A stretch of 64,000 nucleotides of DNA from Eledone cirrhosa. Lineage: Eukaryota. Positions 18,729-64,000 of the stretch are shown here, one piece after another. The DNA is taken from NCBI GenBank assembly GCA_964016885.1, contig OZ024744.1:116188001-116252000 (forward strand), in the 5' to 3' direction. The notes under the pieces are model-generated. The model saw nothing but the letters and a program-made list of their open reading frames with translations, was not told the DNA's origin and did not search any database. The position numbers were made by a program, and so were the translations under genes. Numbering within the stretch: position 1 is the stretch's first letter; every line of letters begins with the position of its first letter.

Positions 18729-18909
18729 TGTTTCTACTTTAGGCACAAGACCAGCAAATACCCAGTGCATTACTGGTACTTTATTTTATCGACCCCGTAA
18801 GGATGAAAGGCAAAGTCAACCTCGGCGGGATTTGAACTCAGATCGTAAAGGGACGTAACTATGCTGGAAAGCATGGCGTCCGACCCTCTACCGATACTGC
18901 CAATCCACC
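18729..18909 (-). mobile_element. tRNA-derived SINE in LTR
   Basis: Same SINE at the same LTR position; direct repeat gcacaaataat. Confidence 0.85.
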
Positions 18910-29731: not shown

Positions 29732-30046
29732 TTTAGCAGTATTAGTTGTAGATGTTATCGAGATGCAAGTGACATAATAACAGCAGAAATTAGAGATGAA
29801 ATATACGTTTATTTTTTGTTCTAGCACAAACAATGGTGTTGTAAAGAGGCTGGTATCTGGCGTGTGATCCGTCGGCTTTCCAGTGGCTTTCTGTCTTTTC
29901 TTTCTGGCGTTCTCAACCGGCGTTGTTCTATCAAGGAGCGTGAGGCGTCTTACTACAGTACCTCGAGCCAGATTTTCAAATTATCGAAAATCGATGTCAT
30001 TACTCACATGTGGAGTAAGATGGCGAACAATGCAACAATGGGGAGC
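29732..30046 (-). mobile_element. Inverted 3' end (3'UTR, decayed PPT, LTR 29732-29957) of the Gypsy family
   Basis: Diverged reverse complement of ~32992-33315; minus-strand LTR TGTAGTAAGACG...CTGCTAAA. Confidence 0.85.
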
Positions 30047-30049
30047 AAC

Positions 30050-32844: not shown

Positions 32845-33079
32845 ACTATGTTAGCTGCACCTTTTTTTTGCCTCTGTGTTTCTGCTTTTTCTTTGCCTTG
32901 TTTTTTTTTTATGCATGCATGTCGTTTTTTTTTCTTCTCTAAACATTTTTCAAATCCTTATTCTGGATTCAATTTTTGGTAGAGCGGATAGCTCCCCCTT
33001 GTTGCATTGTTCGCCATCTTACTCCACATGTGAGTAATGACATCGATTTTCGATAATTTGAAAATCTGGCACGAGTTAC

Positions 33080-33315
33080 TGTAGTAAGACGCCTCACGGC
33101 CCTTGATAGAACAACGCCGGTTGAGAACTCCAGAAAGAAAAGACAGACAGCCACTGGAAAGCCGACTGATCACACGCTAGAAACCAGCCTCTGTAGAACA
33201 CCATTGTTTGTGCTACATCAAAAAAATAAACGTATATTTCATCTCTAATTTCTGCTGTTGAAATAATTATTATGTCACTCGTATCTCGATAACATCTATA
33301 ACTAATACTGCTACA
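33080..33315 (+). mobile_element. 3' LTR of the Gypsy element
   Basis: TGTAGTAAGACG...CTGCTACA downstream of integrase; contains AATAAA; preceded by a decayed PPT (aaaatctggcacgag). Confidence 0.85.
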
Positions 33316-34687
33316 TATATACATGTACGTATGGATTCACCGAAAATTTATTATAATGCTCGGTGTGTTTGTAAACAAACATCCCGTATTAAGCCGTATT
33401 GTCTAGCAACCATCGCTGCTCGTTTGTTTAACACTGACAAAGAACGCTGTACTAGTTTCAAGCTTATTAGCTATCGTCAGCAACGTATAGCTTCCTGCCA
33501 GATTGTGGTACGTATATACTTACCTTATGCATATTAACGGGTGAGTAGCCCAATTTGCATATCGAGCGGGTTAATCGGCTGGATGCACCTAAAACGATAA
33601 ACGGAAAAAAATGAAACGAAATTTCATTTCCCACTCTTAGAACGACTGTTACTTAAATATAAGTATGTACACATACATACACATATGTATACAGACGTAC
33701 AGTAGTGTGTATATATATATACATGCATACATATATACATGTACGTATGGATTCACCGAACATTTATTATAATGCTCGGTGTGTTTATAAACAAACATCC
33801 CGTATTAAGCCGTAGTGTCTAGCTACCATCGCTGCTCGTTTGTTTAACACTGACAAAGGAACGCTGTACTAGTTTCAAGCTTATTAGCTATAATCAGCAA
33901 CGTTTACCTTTCTGCTAGATTGTTGAACGTATATACTTACCTTATGCATATTAACAGCTGAGTAACCCAATTTGCATATCGAGTGGGTTAATCGGCCGGG
34001 TGCACCTAAAACGTTAAACGGAAAAAAATGAAAGGAAATTTCATTTCCCTCTCTTAGTACGGCTGTTACTTAAATATAAGTATGTACACGTACATACACA
34101 TATGTATACAGACGTACAGTAGTATGTATATATATATATACATACATGCACACATATATACATGTACGTATGGATTCATCGAACATTTATTATAATGCTC
34201 GGTGTCTTTGTAAACAAACATGCCGTATTAAGCCGTAGTGTCTAGCAACGATCGCTGCTCGTTTTTTTAACACTGACAAAGGAACGCTGTACTAGTTTCA
34301 AGCTTATTAGCTATCGTCAGCAACGTATACCTTCCTGCCAGATTGTTGACCGTATATACTTACCATATGCATATTAACGGCTGAGCAGCCCAATTTGCAT
34401 ATCGAGTGGGTTAATCGGCCGGGTGCACCGAAAACGATAAACAGAAAAAAATGCAACGAAATTTCATTTCCCACTCTTAGAACGGCTGTTACTTAAATAT
34501 AAGTATGTACACGTACATAGACTTATGTTTTCAGACGTACAGTATTATGTATATATATATATACATACATGCACACATATATACATGTACGTATGGATTC
34601 ACCGAACATTTATTATAATGCTCGGTGTCTTTGTAAACAAACATCCCGTATTAAGCCGTATTGTCTAGCAACCATCGTTGCTCGTTT

Positions 34688-34774
34688 GTTCAACACTGAC
34701 AAAGGAACGCTGTACTAGTTTCAAGCTTATTAGCTATCGTCAGCAACGTATACCTTCCTGGCAGATTGTTGAAC
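34688..34774 (-). ncRNA. Type I hammerhead ribozyme (representative copy; core 34707-34749)
   Basis: Core CUGACGA...GAAA...GUA; stem II AGCU/AGCU with loop AAUA; palindromic minimal stem III ACUAGU; stem I ACGUUG/CAGCGU extended to GUUCAACA/UGUUGAAC. Confidence 0.78.
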
Positions 34775-37700
34775 GTATATACTTAACTTAATGCATATTA
34801 ATGGCTGAGTAGCCCAACTTGCATATCGAGTGGGTTAATCGGCCGGGTGCACCTAAAGCGATAAAGGAAAAAAAAAATGAAACGAAATTTCATTTCCCAC
34901 TCGTAGTACGGCTGTTACTTAAATATAAGTATGTACACGTACATACACATATGTACACAGACGTACAGTATTATGTATATATATATACATACATGCACAC
35001 ATATATACATGTACGTATGGATTCACCGAACATTTATTATAATGCTCGGTGTGTTTGTGAACAAACATCCGGTATCAAGCCGTAGTGTCTAGCAACCATC
35101 GTTGCTCGTTTGTTCAACACTGACAAAGGAACGCTGTACTAGTTTCAAGCTTATTAGCTATTGTCAGCAACGTATACCTTCCTGCCAGATTGTGGAACGT
35201 ATATACTTACCTTATGCATATTAACAGGTGAGTATCCCAATTTGCATATCGAGTGGGTTAATCGGCCGGGTGCACCGAAAACGATAAACGAAAAAATGAA
35301 ACGAAATTTCATTTCCCACTCTTAGTACGGCTGTTACTCAAATATAAGTATGTACACGTACATACACATATGTATACAGACGTACAGTAAGGTGTATATA
35401 TATATACATAAATGCACACATATATACATGTACGTATGGATTCACCGAATATTTATTATAATGCTCGGTGTGTTTGTGAACAAACATCCGGTATTAAGCC
35501 GTAGTGTCTAGCAACCATCGTTGCTCGTTTGTTCAACACTGACAAAGGAACGCTGTATTAGTTTCAAGCTTATTAGCTATCGTCAGCAACGTATACCTTC
35601 CTGCCAGATTGTTGAACGTATATACTTACCTTATGCATATTAACGGCTGAGTGGCCCAATTTGCATATCGAGTGGGTTAATCGACCGGGTGCACCTAAAT
35701 CGATAAACGGAAAAAAATGAAACGAAATTTCATTTCCCTCTCTTAGTACGGCTGTTACTTAAATATAAGTATGTACACGTACATACACATATGTATACAG
35801 ACGTACAGTAGTATGTATATATATACACATACATACACACATATATACATGTACGTACGGATTCACCGAACATTTATTATAATGCTCGGTGTGTTTGTAA
35901 ACTAACATCCCGTATTAAGCCGTAGTGTCTAGCAACCATCGTTGCTCGTTTGTTCAACACTGACAAAGGAACGCTGTACTAGTTTCAAGCTTATTAGCTA
36001 TCGTCAGCATCGTATACCTTCCTGCAAAATTGTTGAACGTATATACTTACCTTATGCATATTAACGGGTGAGTAGCCCAATTTGCATATCGAGTGGGTTA
36101 ATCGGCCGGATGCACCTAAAACGATAAACGGAAAAAAATGAAACGAAATTTCATTTCCCACTCTTAGAACGGCTGTTACTTAAATATAAGTATGTACACG
36201 TACATACACTTATGTTTTCAGACGTACAGTATTATGTATATATATATATATACATGCACACATATATACATGTACGTATGGATTCACCGAACATTTATTA
36301 TAATGGTCGGTGTGTTTGTGAACAAACATCCGGTATCAAGCCGTAGTGTCTAGCAACCATCGTTGCTCGTTTGTTCAACACTGACAAAGGAATGCTGTAC
36401 TAGTTTCAAGCATATTAGCTATCGTCCGGATGCACCTACATCGATAAACGGAAAAAAATGAAACGAAATTTCATTTTCCACTCTTAGTACGGCTGTTACT
36501 TAAATATAAGTATGTACACGTACATACACATATGTATACAGACGTACAGTAGTGTGTGTATATATATACATACATGCACACATATATACATGTACGTATG
36601 GATTCACCGAACATTTATTATAATGCTCGGTGTGGTTTGTAAACAAACATCCCGTATTAAGCCGTATTGTCTAGCAACCATCGTTGCTCGTTTGTTCAAC
36701 ACTGCCAAAAAAACGCTGTACTAGTTTCAAGCTTATTAGCTATCGTCAGCAACGTATACCTTCCTGCCAGATTGTGGAACGTATATACTTAACTTAATGC
36801 ATATTAATGGCTGAGTAGCCCAATTTGCATATCGAGTGGGTTAATCGGCCGGGTGCACCTAAAGCGATAAACGAAAAAAAAAAAGAAAAGAAATTTCATT
36901 TCCCACTCTTAGTACGGCTGTTACTTAAATATAAGTATGTACACGTACATACACATATGTACACAGACGTACAGTATTATGTATATATATATACATACAT
37001 GCACACATATATACATGTACGTATGGATTCACCGAACATTTATTATAATGCTCGGTGTGTTTGTGAACAAACATCCAGTATCAAGCCGTAGTGTCTAGCA
37101 ACCATCGTTGCTCGTTTGTTCAACACTGACAAAGGAACGCTGTACTAGTTTTAAGCATATTAGCTATCATCAGCAACGTATACCTTCCTGCCAGATTGTT
37201 GAACGTATATACTTACCTTATGCATATTAACGGCTGAGTGGCCCAATTTGCATATCGAGTGGGTTAATCGGCCGGGTGCACCGAAAACGATAAATGGAAA
37301 AAAATGAAACGAAATTTCATTTCCCACTCTTAGTACGGCTGTTACTTAAATATAAGTATGTACACGTACATACACATATGTATACAGACGTACAGTAGCA
37401 TGTATATATATACACATACATACACACATATATACATGTACGTACGGATTCACCGAACATTTATTATAATGCTCGGTGTGTTTGTAAACTAACATCCCGT
37501 ATTAAGCCGTAGTGTCTAGCAACCATCGTTGCTCGTTTGTTCAACACTGACAAAGGAATGCTGTACTAGTTTCAAGCTTATTAGCTATCGTCAGCATCGT
37601 ATACCTTCCTGCAAAATTGTTGAATGTATATACTTACCTTATGCATATTAACGGGTGAGTAGCCCAATTTGCATATCGAGTGGGTTAATCGGCCGGATGC

Positions 37701-40700
37701 ACCTAAAACGATAAACGGAAAAAAATGAAACGAAATTTCATTTCCCACTCTTAGAACGGCTGTTACTTAAATATAAGTATGTACACGTACATACACTTAT
37801 GTTTTCAGACGTACAGTAGTGTGTATATATATATACATACATGCCCACATATATACATGTACGTATGGATTCACCGAACATTTATTATAATGCTCGGTGT
37901 GTTTGTGAACAAACATCCGGTATTAATCCGTAGTGTCTAGCCACCATCGTTGCTCGTTTGTTCAACACTGACAAAGGAACGCTGTACTAGTTTCAAGCTT
38001 ATTAGCTATCGTCAGCAACGTATATCTTCCTGCCAGATTGTTGAACGTATATACTTACCTTATGCATATTAACGGGTGAGTAGCCCAATTTGCATAACGA
38101 GTGGGTTAATCGGCCGGGTGCACCTAAAGCGATAAACGAAAAAAAATGAAACGAAATTTCATTTCCCACTCTTAGTACGGCTGTTACTTAAATATAAGTA
38201 TGTACACGTACATACACATATGTACACAGACGTACAGTATTATGTATATATATATACATACATGCACACATATATACATGTACGTATGGATTCACCGAAC
38301 ATTTATTATAATGCTCGGTGTGTTTGTAAAGAAACATCCCGTATGAAGCCGTAGTGTCTAGCAACCATCGTTGCTCATTTGTTCAACACTGACAAAGAAA
38401 CACTGTACTAGTTTCAAGCTTATTAGCTATCGTCAGCAACTTATACCTTCCGGCCAGATTGTTGAACGTATACACTTACATTATGCATATTAACGGGTGA
38501 GTAGCCCAATTTGATATCAAGTGGGTTAATCGGCCGGGTGCACCTAAAGCAATAAACGAATAAAAAATGAAACGAAATTTCATTACGCACTCTTAGTACG
38601 GCTGTTACTTAAAAATAAGTATGTACACGTACATACACATATGTATACAGTCGTACAGTAGTGTGTATATATATATACATACATGCACACATATATACAT
38701 GTACGTATAGATTCACCGAACATTTATTATAATGGTCGGTGTGTTTGTAAACAAACATGCCGTATTAAGCCTTAGTGTCTAGCAACCATCGCTGCTCGTT
38801 TGTTTAACACTGACAAAGAACGATGTACTGGTTTTCAGCTTATTAGCTATCGTCAGCAACGTATACCTTCCTGCCAGATTGTGGAACGTATATACTTACC
38901 TTATGCATATTAACGGGTGAGTAGCCCAATTTGCATATCGAGTGGGTTAATCGGATGGGTGCACCGAAAACGACAAACGAAAAAAATGAAACGAAATTTC
39001 ATTTCCTACTCTTAGTACGGCTGTTACTTAAATATAAGTATGTACACGTACATACACATATGTAAACAGACGTACAGTAGTGTGTGTATATATATACATA
39101 CATGCACACATATATACATGTGCGTATGGATTCACAGAACATTTATTATAATGCTCGGTGTGTTTGTAAACAAACATCCCGTATTAAGCTGTATTCTCAA
39201 GCAACCATCGTTGCTCGTTTGTTCAACACTGACAAAGGAACGCTGTACTAGTTTCAAGCTTATTAGCTATCGTCAGCAATGTATACCTTCCTGCCAGATT
39301 GTTGAACGTATATACTTACCTTATGCATATTAACGGCTGGGTAGCCCAATTTGCATATCGAGTGGGTTAATCGGCCGGGTGCACCTAAGACGATAAACGG
39401 AAAAAAAATGAAACGAAATTTCATTTCCCACTCTTAGTACGGCTGTTACTTAAAAATAAGTATGTACACGTACATACACATATGTATACAGACGTACAGT
39501 AGTGTGTTTATATTTATATACATACGTGCACACGTATATACATACATGTATGGTTTCAACGAACATTTATTATAATGCTCGGTGTGTTTGTAAACAAACA
39601 TGCCGTATTAAGCCGTAGTGTCTAGCAACCATCGCTGCTCGTTTGTTTAACACTGACAAAGAACGCTGGACTAGTTTCAAGCTTATTAGCTATCGTCAGC
39701 AACGTATACCTTCCTGCCAGATTGTGGAAGGTATATACTTACCTTATGCATATTAACGGGTGAGTAGCCCAATTTGCATATCGAGTGGGTTAATCGGCCG
39801 GGTGCACCGAAAACGATAAACGGAAAAAATGAAACGAAATTTCATTTCCCACTCTTAGTACGGCTGTTACTTAAATATAAGTATGTACACCTACATACAC
39901 ATATGTATACAGACGTACAGTAGTATGTATATATATATATATACATACATACACACATATATACATGTACGTATGGATTCACCGAACATTTATTATAATG
40001 CTCGGTGTGTTTGTGAACAAACATCCCGTATTAAGACGTAGTGTCTAGCAACCATCGTTGCTCGTTTGTTCAACACTGACAAAGGAACGCTGTATTAGTT
40101 TCAAGCTTATTAGCTATCGTCAGCAACGTATACCTTCCTGCCAGATTGTTGAACGTATATACTTACCTTATGCATATTAACGGCTGAGTAGCCCAATTTG
40201 CATATCGAGTGGGTTAATCGGCCGGGTGCACCGAAAACGATAAACGGAAAGAAATGAAACGAAATTTCATTTCCCTCTCTTAGTACGGCTGTTACTTAAA
40301 TATAAGTATGTACACCTGCATACACATATGTATACAGACGTACAGATGTATGTATATATATATATATACATACAAACACACATATATACATGTACGTACG
40401 GATTCACCGAACATTTATTATAATGCTCGGTGTGTTTGTAAACAAACATCCCGTATTAAGCCGTAGTGTCTAGCAACCATCGTTGCTCGCTTGTTCAACA
40501 CTGACAAAGGAACGCTGTACTAGTTTCAAGCTTATTAGCTATCGTCAGCATCGTATACCTTCCTGCAAAATTGTTGAACGTATATACTTACCTTATGCAT
40601 ATTAACGGGTGAGTAGGCCAATTTGCATATCGAGTGGGTTAATCGGCCGGATGCACCTAAAACGATAAACGAAAAAAAATGAAACGAAATTTCATTTCCC

Positions 40701-41761
40701 ACTCTTAGAACGGCTGTTACTTAAATATAAGTATGTACACGTACATACATTTATGATTTCAGACATACAGTATTATGTATATATATATATACATACATGC
40801 ACACATATATACATGTACGTATGGATTCACAGAATATTTATTATAATTGTCGGTGTGTTTGTAAACAAACATCCCGTATTAAGCCGTAGTGTCTAGCAAC
40901 CATCGTTGCTCGTTTGTTCAACACTGACAAAGGAACGCTGTACTAGTTTCAAGCTTATTAGCTATTGTCAGCAACGTATACCTTCCTGCCAGATTGTGGA
41001 ACGTAATTAATTACCTTATGCATATTAACGGGTGAGTAGCCCAATTTGCATATCGAGTGGGTTAATCGGCTGGATGCACCTAAATCGATATACGGAAAAA
41101 AATGAAACGAAATTTCATTTCCCACTCTTAGTACGGCTGTTACTGAAATATAAGTATGTACACGTACATACACATATGTACACAGACGTATAGTAGTGTG
41201 TATATATATATACATACATACATGCACACATATATACATGTACGTATGGATTCACCGAACATTTATTATAATGCTCGGTGTGTTTGTGAACAAACATCCG
41301 GTATTAAGCCGTAGTGTCTAGCAACCATCGTTGCTCGTTTGTTCAACACTGAAAAAGGAACGCTGTACTAGTTTCAAGCATATTAGCTATCGTCAGCAAC
41401 GTATACCTTCCTGCCAGATTGTTGAACGTATATACTTACCTTATGCATATTAACGGCTGAGTAGCCCAATTTGCATATCGAGTGGGTTAAACGGCCGGGT
41501 GCACCTAAAACGATAAACGGAGAAAAATGAAACGAAATTTCATTTCCCACTCTTAGTACGGCTGTTACTGAAATATAAGTATGTACACGTACATACACAT
41601 ATGTATACAGACGTACAATAGTATGTATACATATATACATACATTCACACATATATACATGTACGTATGGATTCACCAAACATTTATTATGATGCTCGGT
41701 GTGTTTGTAAACAAACATCCCGTATTAAGCCGTAGTGTCTTGCAGCCATTGTTGCTCGTTT

Positions 41762-41848
41762 GTTCAACACTGACAAAGGAACGCTGTACTAGTTTCAAGC
41801 TTATTAGCTATCGTCAGCAACGTATATCTTCCTGCCAGATTGTTGAAC
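41762..41848 (-). ncRNA. Type I hammerhead ribozyme (second representative copy)
   Basis: Same core and helices; the adjacent splice-bounded cassette 41861-41925 is intact. Confidence 0.78.
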
Positions 41849-44800
41849 GTATATACTTACCTTATGCATATTAACGGGTGAGTAGCCCAATTTGCATAAC
41901 GAGTGGGTTAATCGGCCGGGTGCACCTAAAACGATAAACGAAAAAAAATGAAACGAAATTTCATTTCCCACTCTTAGTACGGCTGTTACTTAAAAATAAG
42001 TATGTACACGTACATACACTTATGTTTTCAGACGTACAGTATTATGTATATATATATATACATACGTGCACACATATATACATGTACGTATGGATTCACA
42101 GAACATTTATTATAATGCTCGGTGTGTTTGTGAACAAACATCCCGTATTAAGCCGTAGTGTCTAGCAACCATCGTTGCTCGTTTGTTCAACACTGACAAA
42201 GGAACGCTGTACTAGTTTCATGCTTATTAGCTATCGTCAGCAACGTATACCTTCCTGCCAGATTGTTGAACGTATATACTTATGCATATTAACGGGTGAG
42301 TAGCCCAATTTGCATATCGAGTGGGTTAAACGGCCGGGTGCACCTAAAACGATAAACGGAGAAAAATGAAATGAAATTTCATTCCCCACTCTTAGTACGG
42401 CTGTTACTTAAATATAAGTATGTACACGTACATACACATATGTACACAGACGTACAGTATTATGTATATATATATACATACATGCACACATATATACATG
42501 TACGTATGGATTCACCCAACATTTATTATAATGCTCGGTGTGTTTGTAAAGAAACATCCCGTATGAAGCCGTAGTGTCTAGCAACCATCGTTGCTCGTTT
42601 GTTCAACACTGACAAAGAAACGCTGTACTAGTTTCAAGCTTATTAGCTATCGTCAGCAACTTATACCTTCCGGCCAGATTGTTGAACGTATACACTTACA
42701 TTATGCATATTAACGGGTGAGTAGCCCAATTTGATATCGAGTGGGTTAATCGGCCGGGTGCACCTAAAGCAATAAACGAAAAAAAAATGAAACGAAATTT
42801 CATTACGCACTCTTAGTACGGCTGTTACTTAAATATAAGTATGTACACGTACATACACATATGTATACAGTCGTACAGTAGTGTGTATATATATATACAT
42901 ACATGACACATATATACATGTACGTATAGATTCACCGAACATTTATTATAATGCTCGGTGTGTTTGTAAACAAACATCCCGTATTAAGCCGTATTGTCAA
43001 GCAACCATCGTTGCTCGTTTGTTCAACACTGACAAAGGAACGCTGTACTAGTTTCAAGCTTATTAGCTATCGTCAGCAACGTATACCTTCCTGCCAGATT
43101 GTTGAACGTTTATACTTACCTTATGCATATTAACGGGTGAGTAGCCCAATTTGTATATCGAGTGGGTTAATCGGCCGGATGCACCTAAATCGATAAACTG
43201 AAAAAAATGAAACGAAATTTCATTTCCCACTCTTAGTACGGCGTTTACTTAAATATAAGTACGTACACGTACATACACATATGTATGCAGTCGTAAAGTA
43301 GTGTGTATATATATATACATACATGCACACATATATACATGTACGTATAGATTCACCGAACATTTATTATAATGCTCGGTGTGTTTGTAAACAAACATGC
43401 CGTATTAAGCCGTAGTGTCTAGCAACCATCGTTGCTCGTTTGTTCAACACTGACAAAGGAATGCTGTACTAGTTTCAAGCTTATTAGCTATCGTCAGCAA
43501 CGTATACCTTCCTGGCAGATTGTTGAACGTATATACTTAACTTATGCATATTAATGGCTGAGTAGCCCAACTTGCATATCGAGTGCGTTAATCGGCCGGG
43601 TGCACCTAAAGCGATAAACGAAAAAAAAATGAAACGAAATTTCATTTCCCACTCTTAGTACGGCTGTTACTTAAATATAAGTATGTACACGTACATACAC
43701 ATATGTACACAGACGTACAGTATTATGTATATATATATACATACATGCACACATATATACATGTACGTATGGATTCACCGAACATTTATTATAATGCTCG
43801 GTGTGTTTGTAAACAAACATGCCGTATTAAGCCGTAGTGTCTAGCAACCATCGTTGCTCGTTTGTTCAACACTGACAAAGGAACGCTGTACTAGTTTCAA
43901 GCTTATTAGCTATCGTCAGCAACGTATACCTTCCTGGCAGATTGTTGAACGTATATACTTAACTTATGCATATTAATGGCTGAGTAGCCCAACTTGCATA
44001 TCGAGTGGGTTAATCGGCCGGGTGCACCGAAAACGATAAACGGAAAGAAATGAAACGAAATTTCATTTCCCTCTCTTAGTACGGCTGTTACTTAAATATA
44101 AGTATGTACACCTACATACACATATGTATACAGACGTACAGTAGTATGTATATATATATATACATACATACACACATATATACATGTACGTACGGATTCA
44201 CCGAACATTTATTATAATGCTCGGTGTGTTTATAAACAAACATCCCGTATTAATCCGTAGTGTCTAGCAACCATCGTTGCTCGTTTGTTCAACACTGACA
44301 AAGGAACGCTGTACTAGTTTCATGCTTATTAGCTATCGTCAGCAACGTATACCTTCCTGCCAGATTGTTGAACGTATATACTTATGCATATTAACGGGTG
44401 AGTAGCCCAACTTGCATATCGAGTGGGTTAATCGGCCGGGTGCACCTAAAACGATAAACGGAGAAAAATGAAACGAAATTTCATTTCCCACTCTTAGTAC
44501 GGCTGTTACTGAAATATAAGTATGTACACGTACATACACATATGTATACAGACGTACAATAGTATGTATACATATATACATACATTCACACATATATACA
44601 TGTACGTATGGATTCACCAAACATTTATTATGATGCTCGGTGTGTTTGTAAATAAACATCCCGTATTAAGCCGTAGTGTCTTGCAGCCATTGTTGCTCGT
44701 TTGTTCAACACTGACAAAGGAACGCTGTACTAGTTTCAAGCTTATTAGCTATCGTCAGCAACGTATATCTTCCTGCCAGATTGTTGAACGTATATACTTA

Positions 44801-46482
44801 CCTTATGCATATTAACGGGTGAGTAGCCCAATTTGCATAATGAGTGGGTTAATCGGCCGGGTGCACCTAAAGCGATAAACGAAAAAAAATGAAACAAAAT
44901 TTCATTTCCCACTCTTAGTACGGCTGTTACTTAAATATAAGTATGTACACGTACATACACATATGTACACAGACGTACAGTATTATGTATATATATATAC
45001 ATACATGCACACATATATACATGTACGTATGGATTCACCGAACATTTATTATAATGCTCGGTGTGTTTGTAAAGAAACATCCCGTATGAAGCCGTAGTGT
45101 CTAGCAACCATCGTTGCTCGTTTGTTCAACACTGACAAAGAAACGCTGTACTAGTTTCAAGCTTATTAGCTATCGTCAGCAACTTATACCTTCCGGCCAG
45201 ATTGTTGAACGTATACACTTACATTATGCATATTAACGGGTGAGTAGCCCAATTTGATATCGAGTGGGTTAATCGGCCGGGTGCACCTAAAGCAATAAAC
45301 GAAAAAAAAATGAAACGAAATTTCATTACGCACTCTTAGTACGGCTGTTACTTAAATATAAGTATGTACACGTACATACACATATGTATACAGTCGTACA
45401 GTAGTGTGTATATATATATACATACATGCACACATATATACATGTACGTATAGATTCACCGAACATTTATTATAATGCTCGGTGTGTTTGTAAACAAACA
45501 TCCCGTATTAAGCCGTATTGTCAAGCAACCATCGTTGCTCGTTTGTTCAACACTGACAAAGGAACGCTGAACTAGTTTCAAGCTTATTAGCTATCGTCAG
45601 CAACGTATACCTTCCTGCCAGATTGTTGAACGTTTATACTTACCTTATGCATATTAACGGGTGAGTAGCCCAATTTGTAAATCGATTGGGTTAATCGGCC
45701 GGATGCACCTAAATCGATAAACGGAAAAAAATGAAACGAAATTTCATTTCCCACTCTTAGTACGGCGTTTACTTAAATATAAGTACGTACACGTACATAC
45801 ACATATGTATACAGTCGTAAAGTAGTGTGTATATATATATACATACATGCACACATATATACATGTACGTATAGATTCACCGAACATTTATTATAATGCT
45901 CGGTGTGTTTGTAAACAAACATGCCGTATTAAGCCGTAGTGTCTAGCAACCATCGTTGCTCGTTTGTTCAACACTGACAAAGGAACGCTGTACTAGTTTC
46001 AAGCTTATTAGCTATCGTCAGCAACGTATACCATCCTGGCAGATTGTTGAACGTATATACTTAACTTATACATATTAATGGCTGAGTAGCCCAACTTGCA
46101 TATCGAGTGCGTTAATCGGCCGGGTGCACCTAAAGCGATAAACGAAAAAAAAATGAAACGAAATTTCATTTCCCACTCTTAGTACGGCTGTTACTTAAAT
46201 ATAAGTATGTACACGTACATACACATATGTACACAGACGTACAGTATTATGTATATATATATACATACATGCACACATATATACATGTACGTATGGATTC
46301 ACCGAACATTTATTATAATGCTCGGTGTGTTTGTAAACAAACATGCCGTATTAAGCCGTAGTGTCTAGCAACCATCGTTGCTCGTTTGTTCAACACTGAC
46401 AAAGGAACGCTGTACTAGTTTCAAGCTTATTAGCTATCGTCAGCAACGTATACCTTCCTGGCAGATTGTTGAACGTATATAC

Positions 46483-46650
46483 GAGGTTGGTGTTAGGAAG
46501 GGCATCCAGCTGTAGAAATCAAGCCAGATCAGTTCCTGTATGAGCAAGGCATGGTCAGCCGACCAGACACTGCCCACAACAGGACAACCCGTCTAACCCA
46601 TGCTAGCGTGGAAGAACGGACGTAAAACGGTGATGATGATGATGATGATG
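46483..46650 (+). mobile_element. 5'-truncated SINE/RTE-type retroposon 3' end with (TGA)n tail
   Basis: Interrupts a monomer; TSD atatac; ends aacccatgctagcgtggaagaacggacgtaaaacgg(tga)n. Confidence 0.8.
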
Positions 46651-49600
46651 ATATACTTAACTTATGCATATTAATGGCTGAGTAGCCCAACTTGCATATC
46701 GAGTGGGTTAATCGGCCGGGTGCACCTAAATCGATATACGGAAAAAATGAAAGGAAATTTCATTTCCCACTCTTAGTACGGCTGTTACTTAAATATAAGT
46801 ATGTACACGTACATACACATATGTATAAAGACGTACAGTAGTATGTATATATATACATACATGCACACATATATACATGTACGTATGGATTCACCAAACA
46901 TTTATTATGATGCTCGGTGTGTTTGTAAACAAACATCCCGTATTAAGCCGTAGTGTCTTGCAGCCATTGTTGCTCGTTTGTTCAACACTGACAAAGGAAC
47001 GCTGTACTAGTTTCAAGCTTATTAGCTATCGTCAGCAACGTATATCTTCCTGCCAGATTGTTGAACGTATATACTTACCTTATGCATATTAACGGGTGAG
47101 TAGCCCAATTTGCATAACGAGTGGGTTAATCGGCCGGGTGCACCTAAAACGATAAACGAAAAAAAATGAAACGAAATTTCATTTCCCACTCTTAGTACGG
47201 CTGTTACTTAAAAATAAGTATGTACACGTACATACACTTATGTTTTCAGACGTACAGTATTATGTATATATATATATACATACGTGCACACATATATACA
47301 TGTACGTATGGATTCACAGAACATTTATTATAATGCTCGGTGTGTTTGTGAACAAACATCCCGTATTAAGCCGTAGTGTCTAGCAACCATCGTTGCTCGT
47401 TTGTTCAACACTGACAAAGGAACGCTGTACTAGTTTCATGCTTATTAGCTATCGTCAGCAACGTATACCTTCCTGCCAGATTGTTGAACGTATATACTTA
47501 TGCATATTAACGGGTGAGTAGCCCAATTTGCATATCGAGTGGGTTAAACGGCCGGATGCACCTAAAACGATAAACGGAGAAAAATGAAATGAAATTTCAT
47601 TCCCCACTCTTAGTACGGCTGTTACTTAAATATAAGTATGTACACGTACATACACATATGTACACAGACGTACAGTATTATGTATATATATATACATACA
47701 TGCACACATATATACATGTACGTATGGATTCACCCAACATTTATTATAATGCTCGGTGTGTTTGTAAAGAAACATCCCGTATGAAGCCGTAGTGTCTAGC
47801 AACCATCGTTGCTCGTTTGTTCAACACTGACAAAGAAACGCTGTACTAGTTTCAAGCTTATTAGCTATCGTCAGCAACTTATACCTTCCGGCCAGATTGT
47901 TGAACGTATACACTTACATTATGCATATTAACGGGTGAGTAGCCCAATTTGATATCGAGTGGGTTAATCGGCCGGGTGCACCTAAAGCAATAAACGAAAA
48001 AAAAATGAAACGAAATTTCATTACGCACTCTTAGTACGGCTGTTACTTAAATATAAGTATGTACACGTACATACACATATGTATACAGTCGTACAGTAGT
48101 GTGTATATATATATACATACATGACACATATATACATGTACGTATAGATTCACCGAACATTTATTATAATGCTCGGTGTGTTTGTAAACAAACATCCCGT
48201 ATTAAGCCGTATTGTCAAGCAACCATCGTTGCTCGTTTGTTCAACACTGACAAAGGAACGCTGTACTAGTTTCAAGCTTATTAGCTATCGTCAGCAACGT
48301 ATACCTTCCTGCCAGATTGTTGAACGTTTATACTTACCTTATGCATATTAACGGGTGAGTAGCCCAATTTGTATATCGAGTGGGTTAATCGGCCGGATGC
48401 ACCTAAATCGATAAACTGAAAAAAATGAAACGAAATTTCATTTCCCACTCTTAGTACGGCGTTTACTTAAATATAAGTACGTACACGTACATACACATAT
48501 GTATGCAGTCGTAAAGTAGTGTGTATATATATATACATACATGCACACATATATACATGTACGTATAGATTCACCGAACATTTATTATAATGCTCGGTGT
48601 GTTTGTAAACAAACATGCCGTATTAAGCCGTAGTGTCTAGCAACCATCGTTGCTCGTTTGTTCAACACTGACAAAGGAATGCTGTACTAGTTTCAAGCTT
48701 ATTAGCTATCGTCAGCAACGTATACCTTCCTGGCAGATTGTTGAACGTATATACTTAACTTATGCATATTAATGGCTGAGTAGCCCAACTTGCATATCGA
48801 GTGCGTTAATCGGCCGGGTGCACCTAAAGCGATAAACGAAAAAAAAATGAAACGAAATTTCATTTCCCACTCTTAGTACGGCTGTTACTTAAATATAAGT
48901 ATGTACACGTACATACACATATGTACACAGACGTACAGTATTATGTATATATATATACATACATGCACACATATATACATGTACGTATGGATTCACCGAA
49001 CATTTATTATAATGCTCGGTGTGTTTGTAAACAAACATGCCGTATTAAGCCGTAGTGTCTAGCAACCATCGTTGCTCGTTTGTTCAACACTGACAAAGGA
49101 ACGCTGTACTAGTTTCAAGCTTATTAGCTATCGTCAGCAACGTATACCTTCCTGGCAGATTGTTGAACGTATATACTTAACTTATGCATATTAATGGCTG
49201 AGTAGCCCAACTTGCATATCGAGTGGGTTAATCGGCCGGGTGCACCGAAAACGATAAACGGAAAGAAATGAAACGAAATTTCATTTCCCTCTCTTAGTAC
49301 GGCTGTTACTTAAATATAAGTATGTACACCTACATACACATATGTATACAGACGTACAGTAGTATGTATATATATATATACATACATACACACATATATA
49401 CATGTACGTACGGATTCACCGAACATTTATTATAATGCTCGGTGTGTTTATAAACAAACATCCCGTATTAATCCGTAGTGTCTAGCAACCATCGTTGCTC
49501 GTTTGTTCAACACTGACAAAGGAACGCTGTACTAGTTTCATGCTTATTAGCTATCGTCAGCAACGTATACCTTCCTGCCAGATTGTTGAACGTATATACT

Positions 49601-51700
49601 TATGCATATTAACGGGTGAGTAGCCCAACTTGCATATCGAGTGGGTTAATCGGCCGGGTGCACCTAAAACGATAAACGGAGAAAAATGAAACGAAATTTC
49701 ATTTCCCACTCTTAGTACGGCTGTTACTGAAATATAAGTATGTACACGTACATACACATATGTATACAGACGTACAATAGTATGTATACATATATACATA
49801 CATTCACACATATATACATGTACGTATGGATTCACCAAACATTTATTATGATGCTCGGTGTGTTTGTAAATAAACATCCCGTATTAAGCCGTAGTGTCTT
49901 GCAGCCATTGTTGCTCGTTTGTTCAACACTGACAAAGGAACGCTGTACTAGTTTCAAGCTTATTAGCTATCGTCAGCAACGTATATCTTCCTGCCAGATT
50001 GTTGAACGTATATACTTACCTTATGCATATTAACGGGTGAGTAGCCCAATTTGCATAATGAGTGGGTTAATCGGCCGGGTGCACCTAAAGCGATAAACGA
50101 AAAAAAATGAAACAAAATTTCATTTCCCACTCTTAGTACGGCTGTTACTTAAATATAAGTATGTACACGTACATACACATATGTACACAGACGTACAGTA
50201 TTATGTATATATATATACATACATGCACACATATATACATGTACGTATGGATTCACCGAACATTTATTATAATGCTCGGTGTGTTTGTAAAGAAACATCC
50301 CGTATGAAGCCGTAGTGTCTAGCAACCATCGTTGCTCGTTTGTTCAACACTGACAAAGAAACGCTGTACTAGTTTCAAGCTTATTAGCTATCGTCAGCAA
50401 CTTATACCTTCCGGCCAGATTGTTGAACGTATACACTTACATTATGCATATTAACGGGTGAGTAGCCCAATTTGATATCGAGTGGGTTAATCGGCCGGGT
50501 GCACCTAAAGCAATAAACGAAAAAAAAATGAAACGAAATTTCATTACGCACTCTTAGTACGGCTGTTACTTAAATATAAGTATGTACACGTACATACACA
50601 TATGTATACAGTCGTACAGTAGTGTGTATATATATATACATACATGCACACATATATACATGTACGTATAGATTCACCGAACATTTATTATAATGCTCGG
50701 TGTGTTTGTAAACAAACATCCCGTATTAAGCCGTATTGTCAAGCAACCATCGTTGCTCGTTTGTTCAACACTGACAAAGGAACGCTGAACTAGTTTCAAG
50801 CTTATTAGCTATCGTCAGCAACGTATACCTTCCTGCCAGATTGTTGAACGTTTATACTTACCTTATGCATATTAACGGGTGAGTAGCCCAATTTGTAAAT
50901 CGATTGGGTTAATCGGCCGGATGCACCTAAATCGATAAACGGAAAAAAATGAAACGAAATTTCATTTCCCACTCTTAGTACGGCGTTTACTTAAATATAA
51001 GTACGTACACGTACATACACATATGTATACAGTCGTAAAGTAGTGTGTATATATATATACATACATGCACACATATATACATGTACGTATAGATTCACCG
51101 AACATTTATTATAATGCTCGGTGTGTTTGTAAACAAACATGCCGTATTAAGCCGTAGTGTCTAGCAACCATCGTTGCTCGTTTGTTCAACACTGACAAAG
51201 GAACGCTGTACTAGTTTCAAGCTTATTAGCTATCGTCAGCAACGTATACCATCCTGGCAGATTGTTGAACGTATATACTTAACTTATACATATTAATGGC
51301 TGAGTAGCCCAACTTGCATATCGAGTGCGTTAATCGGCCGGGTGCACCTAAAGCGATAAACGAAAAAAAAATGAAACGAAATTTCATTTCCCACTCTTAG
51401 TACGGCTGTTACTTAAATATAAGTATGTACACGTACATACACATATGTACACAGACGTACAGTATTATGTATATATATATACATACATGCACACATATAT
51501 ACATGTACGTATGGATTCACCGAACATTTATTATAATGCTCGGTGTGTTTGTAAACAAACATGCCGTATTAAGCCGTAGTGTCTAGCAACCATCGTTGCT
51601 CGTTTGTTCAACACTGACAAAGGAACGCTGTACTAGTTTCAAGCTTATTAGCTATCGTCAGCAACGTATACCTTCCTGGCAGATTGTTGAACGTATATAC

Positions 51701-51868
51701 GAGGTTGGTGTTAGGAAGGGCATCCAGCTGTAGAAATCAAGCCAGATCAGTTCCTGTATGAGCAAGGCATGGTCAGCCGACCAGACACTGCCCACAACAG
51801 GACAACCCGTCTAACCCATGCTAGCGTGGAAGAACGGACGTAAAACGGTGATGATGATGATGATGATG
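51701..51868 (+). mobile_element. Duplicate of the 46483-46650 insertion
   Basis: Same sequence and site, exactly 5218 bp downstream. Confidence 0.8.
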
Positions 51869-54800
51869 ATATACTTAACTTATGCATATTAATGGCTGAG
51901 TAGCCCAACTTGCATATCGAGTGGGTTAATCGGCCGGGTGCACCTAAATCGATATACGGAAAAAATGAAAGGAAATTTCATTTCCCACTCTTAGTACGGC
52001 TGTTACTTAAATATAAGTATGTACACGTACATACACATATGTATAAAGACGTACAGTAGTATGTATATATATACATACATGCACACATATATACATGTAC
52101 GTATGGATTCACCGAACATTTATTATAGTGCTCGGTGTGTTTGTAAACAAACATGCCGTATTAAGCCGTATTGTCTAGCAACCATCGTTGCTCGTTTGTT
52201 CAACACTGACAAAGGAACGCTGTACTAGTTTCAAGCTTATTAGCTATCGTCAGCAACGTATACCTTCCTGGCAGATTGTTGAACGTATATACTTAACTTA
52301 TACATATTAATGGCTGAGTAGCCCAACTTGCATATCGAGTGCGTTAATCGGCCGGGTGCACCTAAAGCGATAAACGAAAAAAAAATGAAACGAAATTTCA
52401 TTTCCCACTCTTAGTACGGCTGTTACTTAAATATAAGTATGTACACGTACATACACATATGTACACAGACGTACAGTATTATGTATATATATATACATAC
52501 ATGCACACATATATACATGTACGTATGGATTCACCGAACATTTATTATAATGCTCGGTGTGTTTGTAAACAAACATGCCGTATTAAGCCTTAGTGTCTAG
52601 CAACCATCGCTGCTCGTTTGTTTAACACTGACAAAGAACGATGTACTGGTTTTCAGCTTATTAGCTATCGTCAGCACCGTATACCTTCCTGCCAGATTGT
52701 GGAACGTATATACTTACCTTATGCATATTAACGGCTGAGTAGCCCAATCTGCATATCGAGTGGGTTAATCGGCCGGATGCACCTAAAATGATAAACGGAA
52801 AAAAATGAAACGAAATTTCATTTCCCACTCTTAGTACGGCTGTTACTTAAATATAAGTATGTACACGTACATACACATATGTATACAGAGGTACAGTAGT
52901 GTGTATATATATATACATACATGCACACATATATACATGTACGTATGGATTCACCGAACATTTATTATAATGCTCAGTGTGTTTGTAAGCCAATATCCAG
53001 TATTATGCCGTAGTGTCTAGCAACCATCTTTGCTCGTTTGTTCAACACTGACAAAGAAACGCTGTACTAGTTTTAAGCTTATTAACTATCGTCAGCAACG
53101 TATACCATCCTGCCAGATTGTTGAACGTATATACTTACCTTATGCATATTAACAGCTGAGTAGCCCAATTTGCATATCGAGTGGGTTAATCGGACGGGTG
53201 CACCTAACATCATAAATGGAAAAAAATGAAACGAAATTTCATTTCCCACTCTTAGTACGGCTGTTACTTAAATATAAGTATGTACACGTACATACACATA
53301 TGTATACAGACGTACAGTAGTACGTGTATATATATACATACATGCACACATATATACATGTACGTATGGATTCACCGAAGATTTATTATATTGCTCGGTG
53401 TGTTTGTAAACAAACATCCCGTATTAAGCCGCAGTGTCTAGCAACCATCGTTGCTCGTTTGTTCAACACTGACAAAGGAACGCTGTACTAGTTTCAAGCT
53501 TATTAGCTATCGTCAGCATCGTATACCTTCCTGCAAAATTGTTGAACGTATATACTTACCTTATGCATATTAACGGGTGAGTAGGCCAATTTGCATATCG
53601 AGTGGGTTAATCGGCCGGGTGCCCCTAAAACGATAAACGAAAAAAAATGAAACGAAATTTCATTTCCCACTCTTAGAACGGCTGTTACTTAAATATAAGT
53701 ATGTACACGTACATACACTTATGATTTCAGACATACAGTATTATGTATATATATATATACATACATGCACACATATATACATGTACGTATGGATTCACAG
53801 AATATTTATTATAACTGTCGGTGTGTTTGTAAACAAACATCCCGTAATCAAGCCGTAGTGTCTAGCAACCATCGCTGTTCGGTTGTTTAACACTGACAAA
53901 GGAACGCTGTACTAGTTTCAAGCTTATTAGCTATCGTTAGCAACGTATACCTTCCTGCCAGATTGTTGAACGTATATACTTACCTTATGTATATTAACGG
54001 CTGAGTAGTCCAATTTGCATATCGAGTGGGTTAATCGGCCGGGTGCACCTAAAACGATAAACGAAAAAAAATGAAACGAAATTTCATTTCCCACTCTTAG
54101 TACCGCTGATACTTAAATATAAGTATGTACACGTACATACACATATGTATACAGACGTAGAGTAGTGTGTATATATATATACATACATGCACACATATAT
54201 ACATGTACGTATGGATTCACCGAACATTTATTATAATGCTCGGTGTGTTTGTAAACTATCATCCCGTATTAAGCCGTAGTGTCTAGCAACCATCGCTGCT
54301 CGTTTGCTCAACACTGACAAAGGAACGCTGTACTAGTTTCAAGCTTATTAGCTATCGTCAGCAACGTTTACCTTCCTGCCAGATTGTTGAACATATATAC
54401 TTACCTTATGCATATTAACAACTGAGTAGCCCAATTTGCATATCGAGTGGGTTAATCGGCCGGGTGCACCTAAGATCATAAACGGAAAAAAATGAAACGA
54501 AAAACATTTCCCACTCTTAGTACGGCTGTTACTTAAATATAAGTATGTACACGTACATACACATATGTATACAGACGTACAGTAGTATGTATATATATAT
54601 ACATACATGCACACATATATACATGTACGTATGGATTCACCGAAGCTTTATTATAATGCTCGGTGTGTTTGTAAACAAACATGCCGTATTAAGCCGTAGT
54701 GTCTAGCAACCATCGTTGCTGGTTTGTTCAACACTGACAAAGGAACGCTGTACTAGTTTCAAGCTTATTAGCTATCGTCAGCAACGTTTACCTTCCTGCC

Positions 54801-55496
54801 AGATTGTTGAACATATATACTTACCTTATGCATATTAACGGCTGAGTAGCTCAATTTGCATATCGAGTGGGTTAATCGGCCGGGTGCACCGAAAACGATA
54901 AAATGAAAAAATGAAACGAAATTTCATTTCCCACTCTTAGTACGGCTGTTACTCAATTATAGGTATGTACACGTACATACACATATGTATACAGACGTAC
55001 AGCATTATGTATATATATATATATATACATACATGCACACGTATATACATGTACGTATGGATTCACCGAACATTTATTATAATGCTCGGTGTGTTTGTAA
55101 ACACATATCCCGTATTAAGCCGTAGTGTCTAGCAACCATCGCTGTTCGTTTGTTCAACACTGACAAAGGAACGCTGTACTAGTTTCAAGCTTATTAGCTA
55201 TCGTCAGCAACGTATACCTTCCTGCCAAATTGTTGAACGTATATACTTACCTTATGCATATTATCGGCTGAGTAGCCCAATTTGCATATCGAGTGGGTTA
55301 ATCGGCCGGGTGCACCGAAAACGATAAACGGAAAAAATGAAACGGAATTTCATTCCCCACTCTTAGTACGGCTGTTACTTAAATATAAGTATGTATACGT
55401 ACATACACATATGTATACTGATGTACAGTATTATGTATATATATATATATACATTATGAGAGTAAAACAAAGAATCCTTTAATACATCAAAAGTTT

Positions 55497-55546
55497 TTAT
55501 TAGCAGACAATGTTTCGTCCTATTAAGGACTCATCAGGGCAATCAA
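55497..55546 (-). ncRNA. Minimal type I hammerhead in the downstream pLTR (stem I mismatch)
   Basis: TTGATTGCC CTGATGA GTCC TTAATA GGAC GAAAC ATT GTC TGCTAATAA. Confidence 0.8.
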
Positions 55547-57198
55547 AACAACAAGAGGTAATATTGGCAGATACAAGCCAGAAACTCTGAAGAATATGGA
55601 GTGTACATACACTAATGTCTTACAAAAATATATGATAATAAAAATGAAAATAAAGATAAAAATAATAAAATTATATAATAAGAATAACTAAGGATGTAGA
55701 TAACATTAAGAACCATATTACAAATATAGTCCAAAGCAACTACCTAAATCTAAACAAATTTGGTTATATAGAGCAGGAATTATATATAACACAATATAAT
55801 ACATTATAATAATAATATACTTTTACCAACATTAAAATTCCAAATTAAAAATCAAAAGGTACAATATATACATGTATATATGTGCGCGCGCACACACACA
55901 CACACATATAACAACCCACACATCTATGTTCGACTACACAAAAATTAAGCCCTATTAGAAGTTTGAATATTAAAAATAAGCATGGTAAGAGTGAAAATAA
56001 TACTAATACATCTACCCAATATACATGAGGCAATAATATGATATAATTACAAGAAACACATATAACAAATAATAAACAACAAAATTATATAATTCAATAT
56101 AATATAATAATAAAATAGATAGATAATCCCCGGTTAATTTACAGAAACAATATAGATGTCACAATAAAATACAATGATAAAACGTTAACAGTGTATTAAC
56201 ATATATCATAAACAATATATACAAATTGATTCATACTGGGTTACAGAATAAATGAGGAAATATAAATTATATAATACTAAAAAAAACTATAATGGTACAG
56301 GGGAAAATTATGATGTTCCAGAAAAAAATATGATGCTACAGAAAAAAAATATATACAGACATCTAACATGATATGTAAAGTCTAAATATCATAATGTTAC
56401 ATATTACAATATTACAAAAATCCAGACATCTTACATGATATATAAAGTTTAAATATCATAATGTTACATATAATGAACAGTAAGTAATAAGGATCAATAA
56501 TACATATAATATAATATAATATATTATAAAATTGGCATAAAATAAATACTTATAATTACAAGGTTAGTAGACAGACATATGTGGATGAGTGAGCGAAGCC
56601 AGACAGTGAATAGTAAATAGAATATAGAATAAAACAAATAAATACAATCAACCGGAAATTACAAAACAAAAGCAAATGTATACACATTTAGGCCTCGCGT
56701 GCATTTAAGAAATTAGGTAAACACTAAGGAAAGCAATCACTTTAATTGACTCCAAACCCTATTTGATAAATTAATATTAAAAATATCGAACCCGTCCAAT
56801 AAGGTAGTATAATATTAGCTGTAGTTTAAGTCATTAAAGTATATAAACTTTAATGTATCGTTACAAATGTTTACAAAAAGGAATAAAATTATACTATCAT
56901 ATACGCAACGATATCTAAAAAACTGACTTAAGTAGAATTAAGGTAGGCTAATGGGGACAGAATTGACGAAATATATGGAGGGTGCGAAGTGGCATAAAAT
57001 ATATTCGATATACTATAATAAATAACAGAACGGAGCATAAAAGAGGCGGGGGTTAAATATAATCATATTCAATCTGGAGGGGTTGACAATAAGTTTATGT
57101 GCGCATGGGGGGGGGGAGGGGGGTTGTCGATAGATAAATCAGAATAGACTTAGAAATAAAAATAGAATTAAAAATAAAATTAAAATTAAAGTTAATAA

Positions 57199-57233
<35 letters not shown>

Positions 57234-57437
57234 TATAAAGATAATAGAATAACGTAAGTGGCGTAAAGTGTGTAATCTTATGTATACTAACAAGGTGTAA
57301 TAGTGAAGACATAGATATGGTACAGTAGCCAAATGATTATGAGAGCTAGAATGAAGAGTCATCAAAAACCAATGGTAACATTAATGTTGGCAAACCAAAA
57401 GAACCCAAACAAAAAACTAAGTAATGGAATATATCTG

Positions 57438-60131: not shown

Positions 60132-60351
60132 ACTGTCAGATAAAAATATATAGAGGCCAAAATACCAGTATATATGTGAGTAAGCTCAACCTGTCGGGAG
60201 CAGTTACAAGGATTAGAATACTGGAGCGTGTTTGAGTCAAACACCCTCTTCGTATTATAGAAATGACAGTAAAGGTATAGCTCAATGCAGTTAAACAGAG
60301 CCAAAAAATTAAGAGAGTAAAACAAAGAATCCTTTAATACATCAAAAGTTT

Positions 60352-60401
60352 TTATTAGCCGACAATGTTTCGTCCTATTAAGGACTCATCAGGGCAATCA
60401 A
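60352..60401 (-). ncRNA. Minimal type I hammerhead in the upstream pLTR (intact)
   Basis: TTGATTGCC CTGATGA GTCC TTAATA GGAC GAAAC ATT GTC GGCTAATAA: canonical core, GUC triplet, stem I GCC/GGC. Confidence 0.88.
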
Positions 60402-61998: not shown

Positions 61999-62030
61999 GG
62001 CTGCGTGTTCGTATCACGTTAAGGTTACCA
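61999..62030 (+). other. 3' 32 nt of mature tRNA-Trp including CCA (the extended PBS of the inverted LTR)
   Basis: GGCTGCGTGTTCGTATCACGTTAAGGTTACCA versus recalled tRNA-Trp GGCTGCGTGTTCGAATCACGTCGGGGTCACCA. Confidence 0.75.
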
Positions 62031-63560: not shown

Positions 63561-64000
63561 TGTCAGCAACGTATACCTTCCTGCCAGATTGTTGATCGTA
63601 TATACTTACCTTATGCATATTAACGGGTGAGTAGCCCAATTTGCATAGCGAGTGTGTTAATCGGTCGGGTGCACCGTAAAAGATAAACGGAAAAAAAGGA
63701 AACAAAATTTCATTTCCCACTCTTAGTAAGGCTGTTACTTAAATATAAGTATGTACACGTACATACACATATGTATACAGACGTACGGTTGTATGTATAT
63801 ATATATACATACATGCACACATATATACATGTACGTATGGATTCACCGAACATTTATTATAATACTCGGTGTGTTTGTAAACACACATCCCGTATTAAGC
63901 CGTAGTGTCTAGCAATCATCGTTGCTGGTTTGTTCAACACTGACAAAGGAACGCTGTACTAGTTTCAAGCTTATTAGCTATCTTCAGCAACGTATACCTT
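63561..64000 (-). repeat. ~422-bp hammerhead satellite resumes
   Basis: Same monomer as 33316-55457, running to the window edge. Confidence 0.93.

Follow-up and report, generated by a model that had tools for sequence, protein, structure and literature searches.

How does a small non-coding repeat with a hammerhead motif in almost every unit come to fill 22 kb of an octopus genome, and what copies it? We address this question for 64,000 nucleotides of Eledone cirrhosa DNA (assembly GCA_964016885.1, contig OZ024744.1, positions 116,188,001 to 116,252,000), hereafter the window, whose own numbering is used below. The repeat belongs to a known class, the metazoan retrozymes without long terminal repeats (non-LTR retrozymes), and the array alone is ordinary for that class. 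It is likely one locally amplified locus of a genome-wide family that is copied in trans by a Hydra-type Penelope-like enzyme: trans copying is indicated by the dispersed copies, whose 3' ends fall at two fixed sites next to (TA)n. The array and one of its ribozymes are located as follows.

33313..55454, minus strand: retrozyme array, 52 units of ~421 bp, delimited by Tandem Repeats Finder (TRF) and unit anchors; both native ends overwritten.
34690..34780, minus strand: example hammerhead with extended stem I; core at 34713-34743, predicted cut after GUA at 34713.

Hammerhead motif and predicted fold

The units are short, tandem and non-coding, with a GC content below 50%, one type I hammerhead each and no LTR structure. 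They were searched with the pattern CUGANGA-U-AGCU-N4-AGCU-U-GAAAC-UA-GUH, with up to two mismatches allowed and the chance level taken from 100 shuffles. The array contains 50 matches (33450 to 55207), 36 of them exact and all on the minus strand, where 0 are expected; one further match lies at 63957. Two more array units carry a more damaged core, and 24 units are fully consensus, stem I included. An earlier reading of this DNA, made from the sequence only, had described about 50 minus-strand hammerheads in a 22-kb array, and the count bears it out.

The core elements CUGANGA, GAAA and NUH are arranged around three helices, with the end of stem I open. This architecture fits the one described for metazoan hammerheads (PMC4209133): helix I has 6 bp, helix II 4 bp and helix III 1-2 bp, with a palindromic loop. 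Stem I (ACGUUG/CAGCGU) with its bulged extension, the ACUAGU palindrome, the U-U and three further hairpins, all named in the sequence-only reading, appear in the folds. Its stem III has to be amended: the palindrome is present, but a 2-nt loop III is unable to close, which leaves the monomer with a single pair under a CUAG cap. At the base of stem II (10.1-11.1), U-U is found in place of G10.1-C11.1. Calling it atypical was correct in that it is uncommon, but it is already published: U-U is tolerated at this position in axolotl HHR_Amex2 (PMC7229834), so that G-C at the base of stem II is typical and not obligatory.

The minus strand, proposed beforehand as the folding strand, indeed has better energies than the plus strand, both for the hammerhead (-25.8 versus -23.1 kcal/mol) and for the circular unit (-131.2 versus -110.6 kcal/mol; z of -5.5 for the minus strand against 30 shuffles). 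On the first 6 adjacent consensus pairs, a double hammerhead formed by neighbouring units is less stable than the free fold by 2.9 kcal/mol and more stable than two single hammerheads by 11.5 (6/6 pairs). A dimer ribozyme is therefore predicted, and we judge that the family's dimer probably self-cleaves. Both HHR_Amex1 and HHR_Amex2 cleave much better as dimers (PMC7229834). Rfam microRNA matches fall only on a TA-rich hairpin, all below threshold. Contigs from three runs of one study, aligned to two units, carry no information on transcription, and a loose-end motif taken from them has no exact counterpart in the genome.

Ends of the dispersed copies

The 36-nt core of the array's family, named A, has 5,299 exact matches genome-wide, mostly in scattered short insertions, and the family occurs dispersed from monomers to multimers. 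Ends were counted at the places of the first 100 matches listed, all on contig C1; with one long array excluded, these make 56 loci. Positions are given on the RNA, from the predicted cut site. Two sites recur, shown here in one example unit.

35760..35767, minus strand: site 1, RNA position 210-217, ACUUAUAU in a small hairpin; fixed 3' end and putative reverse-transcription start.
35703..35735, minus strand: hairpin and site 2 of the same unit, RNA position 274, CCGUUUAU; second fixed 3' end.

Among 82 outer 3' ends, 31 lie at site 1 (~213), 38 at site 2 (258-276, mostly 274) and 13 elsewhere, several of the last being alignments broken at internal TA tracts. A (TA)n tract adjoins 60 of the 69 on-site ends, with an overlap of UUAU; target-site duplications are unreadable inside such tracts. 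The 5' ends are ragged. An inverted arm is found in 26 of the 56 loci. Both sites are used, one per end, in 18 of the 19 double-ended loci, and the remaining one uses site 2 twice (P=3e-5 if independent). Genome-wide, exact junctions number 2,374 for site 2 and 3,962 for site 1, the latter including a related family, C, introduced below.

A second set of 30 loci, taken by their site 2 junction and overlapping the first, has no 5' end at the cut site; 17 of its copies cross that site, and 16 have an inverted arm. Since copies read through the cut site and none ends there, the template was not a cut linear monomer: it was a circle or an uncut multimer. At family-polymorphic sites, units of one insertion differ in 55/446 cases on the same strand and 34/367 in the inverted arrangement, compared with 45% between loci, an allele mixing that mutation hot spots may inflate; other sites differ by 2.8-2.9% within loci. 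One source locus with some mixing, by multimeric transcripts or circles or by template switching, fits best, and the mixed alleles make multimer templates likely at least part of the time. The stronger view that units within one insertion are unrelated (4.3% versus 5.5% between loci) was softened, since mostly one subfamily is shared. Two loci (L036, L070) hold alternating two-unit (ABAB) arrays with identical alternates, compatible with a dimer template or with a later duplication of a dimer.

The same junctions reach into long arrays: one of ~39 kb on contig C12 begins at site 2 in (TA)n. Recurring deleted units form higher-order repeats at loci L016-L019 (G000:C12:20.397-20.436 Mb).

Penelope insertions are known to form partial tandems and to carry an inverted arm and a single-ended tail (PMC8557442), this tail being the stretch between two internal reverse-transcription start sites (PMC11167929); Hydra elements target (TA)n (PMC8557442). 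By analogy, the ~60-nt stretch between sites 1 and 2 can be taken as a Penelope-type tail. The retrozyme copies show partial tandems, an inverted arm, a one-end tail and two sites, and Penelope-type copying is therefore the likely route. The anatomy of the ends is direct structural support for mobilisation by Penelope-like elements. Such mobilisation had been part of the sequence-only reading, and the fixed two-site ends, the (TA)n and the inverted arms of the dispersed copies speak for it; a non-LTR retrozyme family with a dimer-type hammerhead, the other part, is consistent with every test that was run.

Related families and conservation

When the genome was searched with the stem III palindrome kept and the base at 10.1 changed, 11,285 sites matched, compared with 3 for the control. 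The loci inspected among them fall into two families: C, ~85% identical to A, and B, ~62% identical over its whole unit of 466-470 nt. The base of stem II is U-U in A, C-A in C and the canonical G-C in B. Family B accounts for most among 100 listed matches of the 11,285. It forms an array of ~31 units at G000:C1:5738326-5752444 (L151-L170, L190) and is held by many other loci; the array terminates with an inverted arm that reaches site 2 in (TA)n, and its units are 99-100% alike. A further subfamily between A and C, with the stem I of C and the U-U and GUA of A, is seen at L286:3168 (minus strand) and 9092 (plus strand).

Family B has its two sites at homologous places (228-234 and 302), and one end of each kind occurs in all 10 double-ended loci out of 22 examined. 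In both A and B, site 1 has a small hairpin and site 2 is immediately preceded by a long one.

In an alignment of 14 sequences chosen across A, B and C, rows that represent few independent events, the core is invariant and 95% of cells are paired, with slid controls at 52% or less; 6 of the 16 stem pairs are altered on both sides across the three families. A pair of stem I switches from U-G to G-U between the two closest families. Common polymorphisms of the family avoid the core and stems I-III altogether (0/12), in loci picked by their intact core.

A Penelope-like element beside the array

Immediately to the right of the array lies a potential source of enzyme.

55459..61527, minus strand: Penelope-like element with Hydra-clade motifs, inserted in the (TA)n tract of a unit; reverse transcriptase (RT) motifs and a weak GIY-YIG match.
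55459-56660 and 60313-61527, minus strand: pseudo-LTRs of this element, each with its own hammerhead.
59835-60185 and 57438-59795, minus strand: its open reading frame (ORF), in two frames, with the RT motifs and the weak GIY-YIG match.
63337..63560, plus strand: truncated fragment of the element's pseudo-LTR in inverted orientation; a pair of LTR-like direct repeats (~61545-62000, 62911-63337) lies between it and the element.

The Hydra clade is described as having an RWK-like motif, DKT, a CxCx5C linker, CxxC, CxH, a C-terminal GIY-YIG, a hammerhead and a (TA)n target (PMC8557442). In the translation of the neighbouring element we read RWR, DKT, CNCRVSANC, CNLC and CPH; the GIY-YIG match is weak (E 0.003). 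By these motifs the element fits the Hydra clade, a putative assignment. Its family is rich in copies with open frames of close to 915 aa, and 1,088 exact hammerheads were counted for it. The copies end +50 or +153 after their own hammerhead, in (TA)n, with one end of each kind in four clean double-ended loci (L117, L119, L121, L134). The element shows that a suitable enzyme is present, not that its family is the helper.

A hairpin UGUUUG..CAAAC is common to the unit and the tail of the neighbour, at differing distances from the start sites; it was set aside as unproven. A second Hydra-like family (L285-L289; ~52% RT identity) has two end sites in (TA)n; its repeat showed no clear hammerhead. 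In another Penelope-like family, the 3' repeat bears a hammerhead-like motif with the core CAGAAGA (A for U4) and U-U at the base of stem II. This motif is alike in four loci, L189:3225 (minus), L207:1148 (plus), L006:2057 (plus) and L003:167 (plus), and is possibly a natural core variant.

Structure and surroundings of the array

The remaining features of the locus concern its growth and its borders.

63562..64000, minus strand: array continuation on the same strand, ~3.6 units in total, ending 1.07 kb past the window at another LTR.
41646..52113, unstranded: 12-unit block duplication, offset 5,218 bp, one difference; the block is made of related 6-unit blocks.
46483..46650, unstranded: 168-bp foreign insertion in one unit, copied along with the block to 51701-51868.
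29868..33314, plus strand: remnant of an LTR retrotransposon with RT, RNase H and integrase in two frames; its LTR is the left border of the array, and the element is a bystander.

TRF thus confirms the extent first proposed for the array, with the correction that this is not the whole of it: the array resumes at 63562 and runs ~1.07 kb past the window. All of it is one subfamily, with a mean pairwise identity of 93% over the 48 units of 410-430 bp, a figure that leaves out three odd-length units and the last partial unit. Unit 8 (36398-36430) is ~100 bp short, the missing part taking in the first bases of the core and the 5' strand of stem I.

Nor are the ~50 monomers, although correctly counted, independent copies. 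The segment 41646-46895 is present again 5,218 bp downstream with one difference between the copies, and part of the array is therefore a very recent DNA duplication or an assembly artefact. The array likely grew from one short insertion by duplication at the DNA level, a process of which we observe the last step and infer the remainder. We take the 168-bp insertion to be SINE-like (short interspersed element), and repeats in the flanks presumably resemble octopus SINEs.

At the left, an LTR now stands in place of the native end of the array; at the right, where the Penelope-like element is followed by 3.6 more units, the end has given way to a second LTR from the same family. These two flanking LTRs have the same orientation (window 33080-33314; locus L014:2074-9888) and each interrupts a unit in its TA-rich tract, at points that differ by ~10 nt in unit coordinates. 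To the right of the array, the flanking LTR element continues as tandem copies. At the left, an inverted copy of the element's 3' end (29731-30040) creates ~300-bp inverted repeats around 29731-33314. The region is dense in satellites: the left half of the window holds three unrelated ones, at 880-3593 (39 bp), 6832-10086 (115 bp) and 10087-29731 (100 bp).

Discussion

In the proposed route, some loci would give minus-strand tandem transcripts, in which adjacent hammerheads are predicted to pair through ACUAGU. Cleavage after GUA would follow, probably at a slow rate, and a host ligase might close the products into circles, as happens in axolotl and mussel. The enzyme would then cut both strands of a (TA)n tract, as suggested by the ends seen directly, and start reverse transcription internally on the RNA, using site 1 for one strand and site 2 for the opposite one, producing head-to-head insertions with a one-end tail. 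One strand per site is proposed because of the one-of-each pattern in 18/19 double-ended loci. Copies that cross the ribozyme site would come from a circular or an uncut multimeric template, multimers likely serving at least partly. A short insertion would finally expand into an array by DNA duplication and later be struck by other elements favouring TA tracts.

Several observations weigh against this account. The array has lost its native ends, so we infer its origin from its relatives. The Rfam model Hammerhead_1 (RF00163), suggested as a check in the sequence-only reading, leaves the array motif undetected, both at the gathering score over the whole window and at E<=10 on 54600-55700, where it finds the hammerhead of the neighbouring element at 31 bits. 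The motif unites two weakening features, U-U at the base of stem II and a one-pair stem III, and its free fold pairs C3-U4-G5 with loop III, an inactive state. Among Xenopus dimers, one in nine cleaves in vitro (bioRxiv 10.64898/2026.07.22.740005).

Another suggested check, conservation per column, also turned out negative for the family copies, and a core as variable as the rest had been named there as a sign against the reading: in the 30 loci chosen by their site 2 junction, without regard to the core, variation is 5/214 in the core, 14/474 in the stems and 189/6777 in the rest (Fisher P=1.0), one deletion contributing to the counts. Distinct alleles per site within arrays give no steady signal of core conservation. 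Strong core conservation among dispersed copies had appeared in loci picked by their intact core and was rejected when the unbiased set abolished it. We read the variability of the core within the family as neutral decay after insertion, because conservation is visible between families.

As to ends and helper, a C28 array of ~111 kb, of which the ends alone were read, has an inverted arm and site 1 at both ends, and breaks the one-of-each pattern. The unit has no similarity beyond microsatellite to the neighbouring element, which is ruled out as its parent by this lack of homology, and their tails differ in length (~60 nt versus ~100 nt). Compared with partial flanks of ~8 Penelope-like families, the unit gave only microsatellite matches; no parent or helper family emerged among them.

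A different origin with the same mechanism would make the unit the detached terminal repeat of an undiscovered Penelope-like family of this genome, a truncated derivative and not a long-independent parasite. The order hammerhead, site 1, hairpin, site 2 is indeed that of a pseudo-LTR with its tail; pseudo-LTR homology is reported for 24 of 57 Xenopus families (bioRxiv 10.64898/2026.07.22.740005), and many Hydra-like families co-occur here, few of them inspected. On the other hand, no coding sequence was seen as part of any A, B or C unit, nearby ORFs being separate insertions in TA tracts, and the three families have diverged to 62% yet remain full-length tandem units. We consider such an origin unlikely, if worth keeping in mind.

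It is likewise rather doubtful that the hammerhead is crippled, a relic in a repeat spread as an uncut multimeric transcript. The two weakening features, the inactive pairing of the free fold, the lack of 5' ends at the cut site and the mixed alleles within insertions would all suit a relic, as would the hammerhead mutants of an anole element that still inserted in vitro (PMC11167929) and the eight of nine Xenopus dimers that do not cleave (bioRxiv 10.64898/2026.07.22.740005). A relic would not, however, be expected to keep an invariant core and compensated stems across three families, with the U-G to G-U switch in stem I, or to have both free of common polymorphisms in the intact-core loci; and the axolotl U-U hammerhead does cleave (PMC7229834).

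LINEs (long interspersed elements) too show 5' truncation and 5' inversion, and TA tracts here draw several element types, so mobilisation by a LINE, or by a rolling-circle DNA transposon, with the same preference for (TA)n might be considered. We find this very improbable: two internal start sites, one per insertion end, match the Penelope description (PMC11167929, PMC8557442), an element of that kind is co-resident, and the copies exceed one unit and have no poly(A) or repeat tail, again as in Penelope-like elements. Ordinary satellite DNA with a chance hammerhead-like motif and DNA-only spread, for which the block duplication, the other plain satellites of the window and the missing Rfam match could be cited, is already contradicted by the end anatomy of the short dispersed copies, which number in the thousands and have fixed 3' but ragged 5' ends as well as inversions, and by covariation, and deserves next to no credence.

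The preferred reading, a retrozyme family copied by a Penelope-like enzyme, places the repeat close to published systems. The non-LTR retrozymes of coral, mussel and axolotl are likewise small tandem repeats, AT-rich and non-coding, whose units each hold one type I hammerhead; they are present in thousands of copies, from dimers to dozens of units, with a strongly self-paired predicted circle and co-resident Penelope-like elements (PMC7229834). Their units measure ~170-400 nt, compared with 421 nt here, and their expression, cleavage and circles have been shown, whereas cleavage and circles are predictions in our case. Axolotl HHR_Amex1 and newt satellite 2 share with our motif the one-pair helix III and palindromic tetraloop, and HHR_Amex2 the U-U at the base of helix II; HHR_Amex1 and HHR_Amex2 hold one weakening feature each, and the present motif combines both, with the triplet GUA. 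The main text of the coral, mussel and axolotl study (PMC7229834) makes no mention of fixed ends, (TA)n targets or inverted arms.

With Hydra-clade elements (PMC8557442) and anole Poseidon (PMC11167929) the repeat has in common the (TA)n targets, the partial tandems, the inverted 5'-truncated arm, the one-end tail and the two internal start sites with a hammerhead upstream of them. It differs in encoding no protein, in a tail of ~60-70 nt versus 30-40, in its long retrozyme-type stem I and in the lack of homology to the pseudo-LTRs examined. Craig et al. (PMC8557442) note Chlamys elements that are non-autonomous and have copies arranged head to tail; non-autonomous clients of Penelope are therefore already known as such.

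Vertebrate retrozymes also occur as dispersed monomers and clustered multimers, with arrays up to hundreds of units and a proposed Penelope link (bioRxiv 10.64898/2026.07.22.740005); that link consists of co-occurrence and pseudo-LTR homology, whereas here it consists of insertion anatomy, and homology was not found. Amplification to satellite scale, put forward in the sequence-only reading, is real but already in print, with 62-mers in coral (PMC7229834) and arrays of 180 and 300 units (bioRxiv 10.64898/2026.07.22.740005).

According to a 2020 review, animal retrozymes had no motif revealing the retrotransposon that mobilises them (PMC7761336). In the accessible literature, where subscription journals are thinly covered and supplements may list such ends, we found no account of tails, inverted arms or microsatellite targets in animal retrozymes, nor, for octopus, any paper on hammerheads or retrozymes. 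Within those bounds, the insertion anatomy is the part of our results for which we found no description in print. Its interest for specialists is that it connects retrozymes with Penelope-type priming and points to sites that can be tested.

So far, the Penelope link has been one of co-occurrence, joined by homology in a 2026 preprint (bioRxiv 10.64898/2026.07.22.740005). In the present case the complete Penelope insertion signature is resolved to the base in three related families, with the start sites named on a small RNA, and a route becomes visible from single retro-insertions to long satellites. The genome also holds Hydra-type elements with long open frames, so that the identity of the helper, and the way in which tail and inversion arise, become testable in vitro. 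More tentatively, and at somewhat less than even confidence, we propose that a portable docking signal (hairpin, spacer, hairpin, UUUAU) recruits a Hydra-clade enzyme without any shared terminal sequence; the enzyme would act as an asymmetric pair that primes sites 1 and 2 on opposite (TA)n strands, and the insertions would seed satellites of 20-110 kb. If true, this would explain the movement of animal retrozymes together with the inverted arm and one-end tail of Penelope itself.

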